From positions 3,159 to 67,158 of the forward strand of contig JACPOY010000004.1 of assembly GCA_016191245.1 (NCBI GenBank): 64,000 nucleotides of DNA, written 5' to 3'. Under the pieces are notes generated by a model. The model searched no databases. It was not told where the DNA came from and was given only the letters and a program-made list of their open reading frames with translations. A program made the translations under genes and the position numbers. This DNA is from Gammaproteobacteria bacterium (GTDB taxonomy: Bacteria > Pseudomonadota > Gammaproteobacteria > Berkiellales > Berkiellaceae). Each line of letters opens with the position of its first letter. Within the stretch, counting starts at the first letter, position 1. This document shows, piece after piece, positions 10,817 to 15,355 of the stretch.

Positions 10817-12556
10817 CTAGAAGTGGGTATGTATATGATTAGGATCTATCTCAACTTGAGTTAATGCCTGTGTTTGAACTTGGGTAGTAGCATGAAACGG
10901 AGCGCCATTTTCCTCTGTCACAGTCATCACTATCTCCTTCCCACCTTCTCTAGACATCAATGGTGTCCATGTGACTTGTGCTTCAAGCACATGGTGCAAA
11001 TCCAATCCCTGCTGCTGGGATAAGTGATCTGTCATTGGCATTTCCATAATATCATGCAAATTTAATACGTGCTGAGATTGCTCATGCATGAAATTTGTAT
11101 GCAATAAATCATGCTGGCTATCGTATGCAAAAGAATTACCATGCGAGATCTCAACCGTTACGTGAGGGGTTTGCGTAAGTCCTGTGGCATATAAAGTAAA
11201 ATGATCAATAATTTCATTTGGCTTGGTATTGTCTTCAGATAGAAATAACTTTTTTAAATTACTGAACTGATGTTCCAAAAGATCTGAATGTATTTGAGAT
11301 AGTACAATACTATCATGAAAATCAACTGGTAAATGTGAAAAGTCATTATCAATTAATCTTTCTTCTGGAACGCGGTCAAAAAGAAAATTTCCAGTTATTT
11401 TATGATGTATAATATCGTAATTAAGTTTATCATAAAAATTACCGATCGCTTCAGGGATAAGCAGAAAGTTGTTGTATCCATTTTGATGTGAAAGTGAAAA
11501 ACTATCGCCTTTTAAAAAGTCTTTCATTAGATCATATTCAGAATATATATCTTTGATTAATAAATTTAACGCATGATCACTTAACCCAAAGTGTTTGGTA
11601 AAAACATTAGAATGCACGGGATGTTGTGTCCAACCATGAGATTCTCCAGACAATGATATTATGCCCTGATGTCCAAAGCCATATTTGACGTCTTTAGGCT
11701 GCTCAATAGTTACTGTTGCTGCAAACGCATGATGTGCAGCCAAAGGCAACAGAAGCAAAAGAGCCAAATTTATTGTCAATTTATCAGATGAATCTTCAGG
11801 TTTTCTGTTTACTAGTGCATTTGATTGATAATTTCTGTATGAAATTTTTGGATATGTTATTTTAACTGAACGAATAGTATCAACAATTCTTTTATTATGT
11901 TCATTAATGTGGGTTACGCACACTCTAACGACGAAATCATCATTGTTTTCTGATGGTCCCAAAAGATGGATTTTATTTCGAAAACTATCTGAATCAGAAA
12001 CCTCTTCTAATCCAAAACCATTTTTCACTTGGTTTTCATTAAATATAAATGTAATTGCTTTTACTAAAGAAAATAATCCTGTACCATCTTTGGGTAATTC
12101 AATTTTTCCATCTTGATTAATTAGTGCTTCATATTGATTGCCGCCAATATCTGTAATAAGCACAAAATCAGCTTTGGGAAAGTTGTTATTCGCATTATCA
12201 TTATCTTTAGCCCCATAACCGTTAATAAGTAATGGATGTGGAAATGAAAGATAATCTTTTGAAAAATCTGAATTTCCTAAAATATCGATTAATCCCTGCA
12301 CTGGCACCGTGATTTCTAAAGCATGATCTTCTTTAAGAAATTCCATTTCATCTTTAATATCTATCTCTTGGCAAAAACTTTTTAATCTTTCAAAATCTTT
12401 TTTCGTGCCAAGAGAAGCAAATCCTGGCGATTGAAAATTAAAATTCTTTGAAAGTATATTATTTGGGCAAAGTTGAGCTTTAACAGTCAATGTAGAAAAG
12501 ATCTGCGGTATTACACGTGCTTTTTCTGAACGCATTTTCTTAACTGGAAGGATCAC
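10817..12556 (-). CDS. Orphan hypothetical protein (579 aa)
   Basis: Long ORF, GTG start preceded by GGAG; no family recognised; one internal hydrophobic segment; His-rich C-terminal half. Confidence 0.75.
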   Translation of the reverse strand: MILPVKKMRSEKARVIPQIFSTLTVKAQLCPNNILSKNFNFQSPGFASLGTKKDFERLKSFCQEIDIKDEMEFLKEDHALEITVPVQGLIDILGNSDFSKDYLSFPHPLLINGYGAKDNDNANNNFPKADFVLITDIGGNQYEALINQDGKIELPKDGTGLFSLVKAITFIFNENQVKNGFGLEEVSDSDSFRNKIHLLGPSENNDDFVVRVCVTHINEHNKRIVDTIRSVKITYPKISYRNYQSNALVNRKPEDSSDKLTINLALLLLLPLAAHHAFAATVTIEQPKDVKYGFGHQGIISLSGESHGWTQHPVHSNVFTKHFGLSDHALNLLIKDIYSEYDLMKDFLKGDSFSLSHQNGYNNFLLIPEAIGNFYDKLNYDIIHHKITGNFLFDRVPEERLIDNDFSHLPVDFHDSIVLSQIHSDLLEHQFSNLKKLFLSEDNTKPNEIIDHFTLYATGLTQTPHVTVEISHGNSFAYDSQHDLLHTNFMHEQSQHVLNLHDIMEMPMTDHLSQQQGLDLHHVLEAQVTWTPLMSREGGKEIVMTVTEENGAPFHATTQVQTQALTQVEIDPNHIHTHF

Positions 12557-12657
12557 AAGGGGGCTCCTCAGGGTGCTAAAATCACAGGTATCAGTTAATT
12601 TTATCTACTAACTATACTTGTAGCACAAAACTGAGAGACCTAGATGGAAAGTTAACT

Positions 12658-12691
12658 AAAAAAGCAAAAGCCTCAACATTACTTGAGGCTT
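12658..12691 (-). terminator. Rho-independent terminator
   Basis: Stem AAGCCTCAA / TTGAGGCTT with a 6-nt loop, followed on the minus strand by UUGCUUUUUU. Confidence 0.85.
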
Positions 12692-12702
12692 CTATTCATT
12701 AT

Positions 12703-12788
12703 TTTGTTATTATTATTTCCCTGATTGTTATTATCATTTCCTTACTATATCGTTACTTTGTTATTATTATTTCCCTGATTGTTATTAT
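12703..12788. repeat. 32-bp direct repeat, two copies 54 bp apart
   Basis: TTTGTTATTATTATTTCCCTGATTGTTATTAT at ~12703 and ~12757. Confidence 0.9.
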
Positions 12789-13027
12789 TGTTCCTTCCTG
12801 AAAGATAAATTAATTTTATTTTCCCTCATTATTGTTTTTATTCCATTCTTATTATGCTTATTTTAACCCCAGTGTTTTTCGTTACGCCCGTCGAATTCAA
12901 TCGACTTAAGACTATTAAATCACATGAATGAGGATGGCGATATTGTCCCTTGGGGCAATGGACTGATTACCAAGTTTGGTTATAGGTCATAGACTTTGCA
13001 GGTAAACTTCTTGCTAAAAATGATGGG

Positions 13028-15355
13028 TTATTTTTTATTGAGCTGATCAAGGAGTAGCTGCACATTTTCCTGTTGAGTTGGTGTTCCTTTGGATAATATG
13101 TTGATTAACAATTCTCTTGCAGCCTCTATATCACCCACTTCCATATAAGCTTTAGCAAGAGAAATTTGAGCATGAACTTCATCTAGATCATTTACCAGTT
13201 CTAATTTTTCGGTTTGTTTGATAGGTGCAGAAGAAGTTTTCGTTTCTGGTATTGAATCGGATTCAACGATATGATGCGTTGCTAAATCTAAATGGGTATC
13301 CCCAGCTGTCTTAGGTATTTCTATAGACTGAGTATTGATATGAATTGCTTTTTCGCTCTCTACCTTTTCTTGAAGTAAAACAATCTTGGACCATACTTTG
13401 GGTGATATTTCTTTCAAATCTTTTGGAACAGTTTTATACCACTTTTCATAATCATGATATTTTTCAGTTAATACATATAATTCTAATAATTTAAGTAATG
13501 CGTCCCAATAGGCAGGATCCTGTGCAGCAATATCATTTTTGAGAATTTCTTGCAAAATCTTTTCAGCTTGTTGATATCTCTCATAGGCAATATAAATTTC
13601 AGCATCCTCAAGTGAGGCTATTGATTTTTTATGCAGATTTTCTTGTTCTTGTTTAGAAAGAGCACTATGTCCACCTACTTGAGGTTTGAGATATCTATTT
13701 TCTTCACTTGATACTGCTTCCAATGCTTTTTCTAAATCAAAATGCAAACCATAGTTAACTTGTACATCTGTAGATGACATATCTGGAGTTTTTTGAGCTT
13801 CTTTAAGTTGTGGCTTATAGCGATAAAAAGAATTCATCAGATTAGCCATCCAACCAAGCACCTTATGCAAACGGTGCCTACTAAACCAAAGCCATCCAAT
13901 CACCGAACATGACAGAACAAATAAAAACATTATATAAATAAGATCTTTTCTTATATCAGAATGTTTCTCATATTGAACATCATTAGAATTGGCGTCTGCA
14001 GCGCGAGATGGTGATACTTTTGGCGAGGCTGAAGATGCTTTAACATGATGTTCTGGCGAATCGGGTAATTGCTTAGATTTAATTTTAGGTATTGTATCTG
14101 GTGTCGCAACAGCATAAGACTTGTTCGGCCCCATTGTTGATTTAGTAGCAATTTCATGTGGTTGAACAGGTCCATCCAATAATGCTTTTTGTACAACGAC
14201 TTGCCTTAAGTGAGTAATTTCATCTTCTTTTAGGATCAATTGTTTTGCTAATGTTTCATTCTGATTTTGTAAATGTAGGTTTTTCTGAGAAATGTCTTCA
14301 TTTGATCTTTTTAACGTATCAATAGCCTCTTCAATCAGAGATAGCCTTTGAGCAACAAATTGACGAGTATCGATCTGAGATGGTTGCGTACTTTTCTCTT
14401 TAGATAAAAGCTCTGGGTTTTTCTTAGATATGCTATCGTCATTCTCAGCTAGCGGCGCAATAAGTTTTAATGGTTTTTGCGTGTCATCGACATATTCTTT
14501 TGTTTTAGTATAAGCAGGTTCTTTTTCTAATTGGACAGCTTGAAAAGACTCTCGATTCAGATTGTTGGCTTTGCTTTCAACAAAATTTTGCGCATTACCT
14601 TCTGAGTAATGGCTTAATTCTTGTTCTGTAGGCAAGTTAAGAACAGAACCTTGTTTAATATAGTTAATATTGCCCTGATAAAAAGCTTGCATATTTTTAT
14701 CTGCAATTGCCACAACGCCTTGCTGAACTGTAAAATCACTGTTTTCAACAAGTTTTTTGGCAATACTCCACAATGTCTCATCAAAAACTGGCCCATATTT
14801 ACTACCATAAAGTAGGGCCCCTTTTCCTTGCTTAAAGGTGCCAGTCTCTTGCTTTTGTATCTTCGTAGATTGATGAAATTGCGTTGGACTGTCAAAAGAT
14901 TTTTCTGATATCACTTTTGCCAAAGCAATTTTTGATTGGCTTGAGGATGCTTTTGGTGGATCAAGCAAAATCGTATATTCTTTAATAATTTTTCCACCAG
15001 GCCATGCAACCTGAATCAATAAATCAGCAAAGGGATCTTTCACCGGTTGCTTAGTCGATAATTGAATAACATGCTTGCCATTTTTAAGAGTAGTAATTTG
15101 AAATTGGATATGATTTAACCACCCCGATGGTTCAAGGCCTGCTTTTATAAATGCAGGTGAATCGGCAATAGATGTAATAATATCGGAAGGTTCAATTCCT
15201 TTAATATCTACTAAACCAATTTGAGCATCAAGCGGTTCATTGAGATGTGAATTTAACTTAAGTTCACCAAGTCCTAAGGCAAAAGAGATTGACGGCAATA
15301 GTCCGAAAAACAAACACGACATGCATGTCGAAGCAAGTCTTCGAACTTTTTTCAC
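13028..15355 (-). CDS. fimV: FimV/HubP family polar landmark protein
   Basis: ALGLGELKLNSHLNEPLDAQI N-terminus, LysM-like TLWSIA, central TM, C-terminal LAKAYMEVGDIEAARELL; next to asd. Confidence 0.9.
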   Translation of the reverse strand: MKKVRRLASTCMSCLFFGLLPSISFALGLGELKLNSHLNEPLDAQIGLVDIKGIEPSDIITSIADSPAFIKAGLEPSGWLNHIQFQITTLKNGKHVIQLSTKQPVKDPFADLLIQVAWPGGKIIKEYTILLDPPKASSSQSKIALAKVISEKSFDSPTQFHQSTKIQKQETGTFKQGKGALLYGSKYGPVFDETLWSIAKKLVENSDFTVQQGVVAIADKNMQAFYQGNINYIKQGSVLNLPTEQELSHYSEGNAQNFVESKANNLNRESFQAVQLEKEPAYTKTKEYVDDTQKPLKLIAPLAENDDSISKKNPELLSKEKSTQPSQIDTRQFVAQRLSLIEEAIDTLKRSNEDISQKNLHLQNQNETLAKQLILKEDEITHLRQVVVQKALLDGPVQPHEIATKSTMGPNKSYAVATPDTIPKIKSKQLPDSPEHHVKASSASPKVSPSRAADANSNDVQYEKHSDIRKDLIYIMFLFVLSCSVIGWLWFSRHRLHKVLGWMANLMNSFYRYKPQLKEAQKTPDMSSTDVQVNYGLHFDLEKALEAVSSEENRYLKPQVGGHSALSKQEQENLHKKSIASLEDAEIYIAYERYQQAEKILQEILKNDIAAQDPAYWDALLKLLELYVLTEKYHDYEKWYKTVPKDLKEISPKVWSKIVLLQEKVESEKAIHINTQSIEIPKTAGDTHLDLATHHIVESDSIPETKTSSAPIKQTEKLELVNDLDEVHAQISLAKAYMEVGDIEAARELLINILSKGTPTQQENVQLLLDQLNKK

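Follow-up and report, generated by a model that had tools for sequence, protein, structure and literature searches.

A probable small RNA gene with interleaved Hfq-type and CsrA-type motifs downstream of fimV in a Berkiella-like gammaproteobacterium

The window analyzed here is a stretch of 64,000 nucleotides from a Berkiella-like gammaproteobacterium with a genome of 2.96 Mb (2,962,019 bp, 37.7% GC). It contains a FimV/HubP gene on the minus strand (13028-15355), identified by matches to TIGR03505 and TIGR03504, with the stop codon at 13030-13028. The gap between fimV and the next open reading frame is 470 nt long and contains the whole motif array described below. The next reading frame (10817-12556, minus strand) encodes a protein of 579 amino acids, here termed p579, which had no match in Pfam, NCBIfam, or PDB, and is followed by truA (tRNA pseudouridine synthase) and accD. 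A conserved block before p579 (TTTGTGCTAnAAGTATAGTTAGTAnnCTTAACTA, window approximately 12600-12640, minus strand) holds the inverted repeat TAGTTA...TAACTA and is probably the promoter or operator of p579, or a leader hairpin. Neither strand of 12557-13027 contains an open reading frame of at least 40 amino acids, and the AAU AAU AAC frame through the A-rich body is interrupted by stops. The original prediction had placed a candidate sponge RNA at 12658-12860, between the fimV stop and a clean terminator. Both landmarks are where it put them, the terminator consisting of a 12-bp stem followed by CUUUUUU, and the locus was correctly chosen; its extent was not, as it omitted the promoter and 47 conserved nt at the 5′ end. 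The unit spans about 12907 to 12655 on the minus strand (253 nt; 130-210 nt in sister species), and the locus very probably constitutes an RNA gene in its own right, ~250 nt long and so far unannotated. Its features, all on the minus strand, are listed in the direction of transcription.

12940-12989, minus strand: upstream block, a putative regulator site, TGACCTAnnACCAAACTTGnnn ... GTCCAT..(palindrome-like GTCC-N4-GGAC)..CAATAT, from the alignment of nine orthologues and from further orthologues
12914-12922, minus strand: putative extended −10 promoter TGaTTTAAT, conserved as TGnT(T/G)(T/C)AAT in 14/14 orthologues
12890-12905, minus strand: 5′ hairpin GUCGA-UUGAAU-UCGAC, with pairing conservation and covariation
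12880-12889, minus strand: single-stranded box GGGCGUAACG, with invariant columns in alignment A1
12867-12870, minus strand: G box 1 (GGGG), with the first AAN tract after it; GGG invariant in A1 and present in all 13 model-positive orthologues
12695-12866, minus strand: A-rich unstructured body (56% A), in which seven GGA boxes alternate with (ARN)≥4 tracts
GGA boxes, position of the first G, minus strand: 12844 AAUGGAA; 12824 GAGGGAA; 12798 and 12794 CAGGAAGGAA; 12774 CAGGGAA; 12741 UAAGGAA; 12720 CAGGGAA
(ARN)≥4 tracts, minus strand: 12842-12828, 12795-12778, 12771-12757, and 12717-12703
12750-12788 and 12696-12734, minus strand: duplication, 39-nt units of 95% identity, 54 nt apart, with a 32-nt exact match inside
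12655-12694, minus strand: intrinsic terminator, 12-bp stem (12694-12665), 6-nt loop, and tail CUUUUUU; 3′ arm of the stem ...CUUUUGCUUUUUU

The order of the elements after the −10 box is AAGUC, the hairpin, GGCGUAACG, a few A-rich bases, GGGG, AAUAAUAA, the variable A-rich body, and the terminator. All minus-strand motifs named in the original prediction are present in the sequence, including the AAUAAUAAC-type tracts that separate the GGA boxes, and six of the seven GGA read ANGGA. The predicted 32-nt duplicated unit was also recovered, exactly and as part of the longer 39-nt unit. Each copy is composed of AAUAAUAAC-AAU-CAGGGA-AAUAAUAAUAAC, and a third echo, 70% identical, lies at 12813-12852; Tandem Repeats Finder gave no report on the duplicated region. 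The recent 54-nt-spaced duplication was found in no orthologue and accounts for part of the seven GGA of the source genome. The predicted fold agrees with the small degree of self-pairing noted originally: the minimum free energy is −32 kcal/mol over 253 nt (z = −1.72), and, apart from the hairpin at the 5′ end and that of the terminator, the fold has just one weak internal hairpin. Unpaired probabilities of 0.80-0.96 were obtained for six of the seven GGA, which sit in long open stretches, in a GGAA context and not in hairpin loops, while the seventh is buried in a stem. A G-quadruplex formed by the four G boxes is unlikely, given loops of 17-35 nt. When the locus was ranked among 295,634 windows of 200 nt across the 2.96-Mb genome, its seven GGA fell within the top 0.57%, its six ANGGA within the top 0.023%, and its 16 overlapping (ARN)3 within the top 0.036%. 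At least six ANGGA together with at least eight ARN were encountered in only one further genome region, which lies inside a 344-aa open frame. The locus is the sole non-coding stretch of the genome that unites both motif types at such density.

The transcription start is predicted at about 12907/12906. The extended −10 promoter is overlooked by a simple sigma-70 scan because there is no −35 box. The upstream block (12989-12940) has the shared form TGACCTAnnACCAAACTTG ... GTCCAT ... GGACAATAT and appears in sister species as TTGACC-N11-TTGACC and GTCCTTAAGGAC. An RNA hairpin formed by its GTCC..GGAC was rejected, since the pairing pattern is lost across species; the block is therefore read as a DNA element. 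Two known promoter or regulator types were also considered for this region and rejected. A sigma-54 promoter is suggested by TGGCAC-N5-TTGA in the upstream block of one sister species, but the −24 GG varies elsewhere (AA, AC, AG). Direct repeats of the PmrA type have an expected spacing of 11, whereas TTAAT-AGTC-TTAAG has a spacing of 9. The LetA box TNAGAAATTTCTNA, which the original prediction had not seen, is indeed absent within 12900-13100 at up to two mismatches, and the GacA box TGTAAGN6CTTACA is absent from the same interval at up to three. Legionella had been invoked as the regulatory context, but the organism is not a Legionella; for the Berkiella-like host, the framework of LetA, RsmXYZ, and CsrA is an analogy from a related order only (PMC5338858).

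Downstream of the predicted start, 97.5% of the alignment cells of the 5′ hairpin are paired, and in two of the five base pairs both partners are exchanged (GC to AU and AU to GC, in either direction). Its covariation score was reached by 0/500 shuffles, and in slid-register controls the paired fraction drops to 3-50%. The hairpin is absent from two orthologues (G001 and G005). Covariation of this kind speaks for selection acting on the RNA, and hence for transcription of the minus strand. The GGCGUAACG motif, the last nine bases of the box GGGCGUAACG, is invariant in the nine aligned orthologues; a further one (G015) has the variant GGCAUAACG. At the 3′ end, a hairpin with a U tail occupies the equivalent site in 14/14 orthologues, with stems that differ in sequence and range from −11.9 to −23 kcal/mol.

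Conservation downstream of fimV had been proposed as a check on the RNA. A BLAST comparison of relatives gave weak matches, the reading of which revealed shared blocks upstream of 12860, and a covariance model (R1) was built from the 5′ 70 nt. This model found exactly one copy in 13/17 genomes of the genus and no match in 19 genomes from 11 sister genera of the family or order. A 14th species (G005) carries a divergent orthologue downstream of fimV (locus L208 on G005:C2), in which the upstream block, the extended −10, an A-rich body with GGA and GGGG boxes, and the terminator persist but both the GGCGUAACG box and the 5′ hairpin are missing. That the body is retained despite this loss suggests that it is the functional core. 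A search for paralogues by a 14-mer pattern was noisy; the covariance model indicates a single copy per genome. Scanning the genome collection with CTTAAGTC-N-GGCGTAACG returned chiefly chance matches. All 13 model-positive genomes share the order fimV, sRNA, p579 homologue, and p579 is flanked by fimV and truA in each of the 13 examined genomes, at a distance from the sRNA that varies between about 100 and about 900 nt. Genus g7 has p579 right behind fimV and no sRNA element in between; the sRNA is therefore an innovation of its genus.

The constant gene order raises the question of independence. There is no other terminator between the fimV stop and the terminator of the sRNA, so that fimV transcripts must read through and the sequence doubles as the fimV 3′ UTR. 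Together with the synteny in 13/13 genomes, this would fit an element that is merely the 3′ UTR of fimV, a cis-acting leader or attenuator for p579, or both. Such an explanation is very unlikely, because the element has an extended −10 and an upstream block of its own in 14/14 orthologues, p579 possesses a conserved upstream block past the terminator, the fimV-p579 arrangement exists without the element in genus g7, and the distance to p579 is variable. Both routes could nevertheless contribute, with some of the sRNA initiated at its own promoter and some processed from the fimV mRNA. Still less credible is a functionless AT-rich spacer or a simple sequence generated by slippage. The body does evolve fast in length and sequence, and it underwent a recent duplication, but invariant blocks, hairpin covariation, promoter, terminator, and motif architecture are kept across deeply diverged species. 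The FimV C-termini of the orthologous genomes share 32-60% identity, and the co-location of promoter, covarying hairpin, and terminator in 14 species despite this divergence supports the sRNA. The unannotated RNA postulated in the original prediction is very probable.

The motifs of the body are conserved to different degrees. The orthologous bodies contain 51-66% A and two to four (ARN)≥4 tracts each. High ARN scores are expected of any very A-rich RNA, a point that is addressed by dinucleotide-preserving shuffles: pooled over the orthologues, 76 (AAN)4 were observed versus 13.1 ± 4.3 in the shuffled sequences, and 0/500 shuffles reached the observed value. Individually, (AAN)4 was enriched with p ≤ 0.01 in 9/13 orthologues by the same control and with p < 0.05 in 10/13 by mononucleotide shuffles. 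The G residues of the bodies are clustered, with 142/204 in runs of at least two (54 expected) and 27 runs of at least three (3.4 expected). Pooled GGA amounted to 35 versus 16.7 expected and ANGGA to 21 versus 9.5; with the source genome left out, the values were 28 versus 14.3 for GGA and 15 versus 8.1 for ANGGA (p = 0.0125). All shuffle tests treat kin species as independent, and independence is thereby overstated. The number of GGA per orthologue is mostly two to three among the 12 others, with four in G010 and G014 and five in G013 (GGA in the terminator counted), and the enrichment is individually significant in the source genome and G014 only. The order of the G boxes is kept: box 1 reads GGGG(A/U), box 2 (A/C)NGGA, and box 3 A(N)GGGA(A/U), and often a fourth box, GGGGGA, lies directly against the terminator. 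Box 1 has no GGA in roughly half of the species, where its sequence is GGGGU or GGGU. The expected motif conservation was seen for the AAN tracts, which are enriched in the orthologues, and not for the high GGA count. Both the AAN phase and the G boxes are under selection, with the AAN phase as the stronger and more universal signal.

Both potential protein partners are encoded in the genome, which contains one hfq (105 bits) and one csrA (91 bits). The Sm core of Hfq is ~90% identical to that of E. coli Hfq over residues 1-69, including SIYLVNGIKLQG and SQMVYKHAISTV. Residues Y25, N28, G29, I30, K31, Q52, S60, and T61, which we take to be those of the distal ARN pocket in the Hfq-poly(A) structure, are unchanged, and the host Hfq has an intact distal face of the E. 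coli type. For CsrA, the genome-wide scan for ANGGA density revealed a second non-coding locus (L210, G000:C25:81768-82086, minus strand), an unannotated RNA candidate of about 240-290 nt with a strong terminator. Most of its eight A(N)GGAU motifs are placed in hairpin loops, and among the Rfam models PrrB_RsmZ scores best, at 24 bits (E = 0.0017) against a gathering score of 44. The candidate is 73-85% nucleotide-identical in 15/17 genomes of the genus and weakly detectable in genus g7, and its fold energy is −0.30 kcal/mol per nt versus −0.13 for the fimV-linked sRNA. The two RNAs have no upstream block in common. TTAGAA(A) upstream of the RsmZ-like RNA resembles half of a LetA box. This RNA is very probably the canonical CsrA sponge of the lineage.

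The fimV-linked RNA might itself serve primarily as a CsrA sponge beside the RsmZ-like RNA, with A(N)GGA motifs 20-35 nt apart bridging CsrA dimers and A-rich linkers keeping the sites open. The rarity of its six ANGGA in the genome, the accessibility of most GGA, the positional conservation of the G boxes, the pooled enrichment that persists without the source genome, and the presence of csrA are all consistent with this role, and in Legionella mRNAs CsrA binding requires no more than two A(N)GGA sites (PMC5338858). We nevertheless regard it as unlikely. The orthologues have only two to three GGA, about one per 60 nt, and roughly half of the species have no GGA in box 1. The GGA lie outside hairpin loops, unlike those of the RsmZ-like RNA that the genome also encodes; a LetA or GacA box is absent, as is any Csr/Rsm match in Rfam at E ≤ 10, and the triplet periodicity of the linkers is left unexplained. 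CsrA is not the best-supported primary partner, given the few GGA of the orthologues, the RsmZ-like sponge elsewhere in the genome, and the missing LetA/GacA box.

The reading that we favor, with a probability of roughly 0.45, is an independently transcribed Hfq-binding sRNA, either a CrcZ-like decoy or a class-II-like sRNA, in which any CsrA binding would be secondary. The RNA would be made from the extended −10 promoter under the control of the conserved upstream regulator site. Its 5′ hairpin may be protective, and the A-rich scaffold between the 5′ box and the terminator would stay unstructured, so that the distal face of Hfq could take up the repeated (AAN)4-6 tracts and its proximal face the U tail of the terminator. 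The distal side of Hfq recognizes ARN repeats (PMC8121710). The sRNA would thereby occupy Hfq, as a titrating decoy like CrcZ of Pseudomonas or as an Hfq-dependent sRNA of the class-II type. Three to four positionally conserved G boxes, two to three of which read A(N)GGA, would add a secondary CsrA-binding capacity, and in the source species the 54-nt duplication would have multiplied the module of AAN tract and CAGGGA and raised the capacity. We infer transcription of the sRNA, its start site, and protein binding from the sequence. The invariant GGCGUAACG box is the feature that a pure sponge model leaves unexplained.

This box is central to an alternative in which the RNA is a base-pairing class-II Hfq sRNA, with GGCGUAACG and/or the G boxes acting as seeds for CGUUACGCC or C/U-rich mRNA sites and the AAN tracts and terminator anchoring Hfq. 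The most conserved unpaired segment is close to the 5′ end, a position shared with many seed regions, and ARN tracts combined with a U-tail terminator fit the anatomy of class-II sRNAs (PMC6239178). The exact complement CGTTACGCC occurs at just eight other genome sites, none of which coincides with a ribosome-binding site; the most promising of them is inside a dotD-like coding sequence. Antisense blastn-short searches gave low-complexity matches only (E ≥ 0.14). With G005 keeping the gene without the box and two to seven ARN tracts being more than one Hfq hexamer needs, we consider a seed-based regulator improbable. The DotD-like lipoprotein gene, which carries the GGCGUAACG complement in its coding sequence (G000:C11:~153900-154800, plus strand), is followed by a second, presumably dotC-like lipoprotein gene; the complement was judged to be a chance occurrence. 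Within the favored reading, the decoy is preferred over a seed-based regulator because the tracts exceed the use of one hexamer, because the capacity was apparently expanded by module duplication, and because the body of the G005 orthologue survives the loss of the 5′ box.

Additional CsrA binding to the Hfq-binding sRNA is plausible, since the A(N)GGA boxes are conserved, single-stranded, and 20-35 nt apart. McaS provides a precedent for dual binding, as it also binds CsrA via GGA motifs (discussed in PMC10729762). A stronger version, in which one RNA co-titrates both regulators, the (AAN)n tracts loading Hfq hexamers and the A(N)GGA motifs loading CsrA dimers, is doubtful. The sRNA would then answer to a regulator distinct from LetA/GacA and operate alongside the RsmZ-like sponge, and the Hfq and Csr networks would be coupled in an intranuclear amoeba pathogen. 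As a single-stranded array of interleaved Hfq-type and CsrA-type motifs that grows by module duplication, the sRNA offers a simple natural system in which to ask if two global regulators can be linked by one decoy. A comparative study of Berkiella from 2022 lists "Number of sRNA 0 / 0" (PMC9803151), and the fimV-linked sRNA and the RsmZ-like RNA provide a first way into the post-transcriptional control of these bacteria, which are obligately intranuclear.

The comparison with Rfam envisaged in the original prediction (CsrB, RsmX/Y/Z, and CrcZ) turned out negative. No match was obtained at gathering thresholds in the whole window, no Csr/Rsm match at E ≤ 10 in 12450-13150, and none at the sRNA locus when the RsmY and RsmZ models were run genome-wide. 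The sub-threshold matches at E ≤ 10 were limited to CrcZ, greA, rli40, and STnc230 and arose from A-rich tracts or from the terminator. Those to CrcZ (RF01675) comprised three local matches of 9.8-16 bits on AAN tracts only, and their shortfall from the gathering score of 95 means that there is no homology.

With CsrB, RsmX, RsmY, and RsmZ (clan CL00106), the sRNA shares multiple GGA, an intrinsic terminator, growth by module duplication, and a host that encodes CsrA. It differs from them in that its GGA occur in open single strands in a GGAA context instead of A(N)GGAU hairpin loops, in that its orthologues have two to three GGA, and in that it has neither a GacA/LetA upstream box nor a match to the covariance models; moreover, a separate RNA of the same genome fits the CsrA-sponge class. 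McaS, ChiX, and MgrR of E. coli resemble it in the combination of ARN motifs, which bind the distal face of Hfq, and a U-tail terminator for proximal binding, the anatomy of class-II sRNAs (PMC6239178). Unlike these, to which it has no sequence relationship, the sRNA shows no identified pairing seed, and its ARN tracts far exceed the need of a single hexamer. The A-rich motifs of CrcZ bind the distal face of Hfq and act by sequestration (PMC4063720). CrcZ, CrcY, and CrcX of Pseudomonas are about 400 nt long, compared with 130-250 nt for the sRNA, and CrcZ is without the conserved G/GGA boxes and the 5′ hairpin and box. The CrcZ promoter depends on sigma-54 and CbrB and is located beside cbrB, whereas no such promoter was found for the sRNA, which has its extended −10 beside fimV. 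The sRNA is similar to these RNAs in having several AAnAAnAA-type motifs in single-stranded stretches, a modular body built from repeats, and a terminator at the end. It is best described as a new, genus-restricted sRNA family of the known protein-binding or decoy kind with an unusual interleaved motif array.
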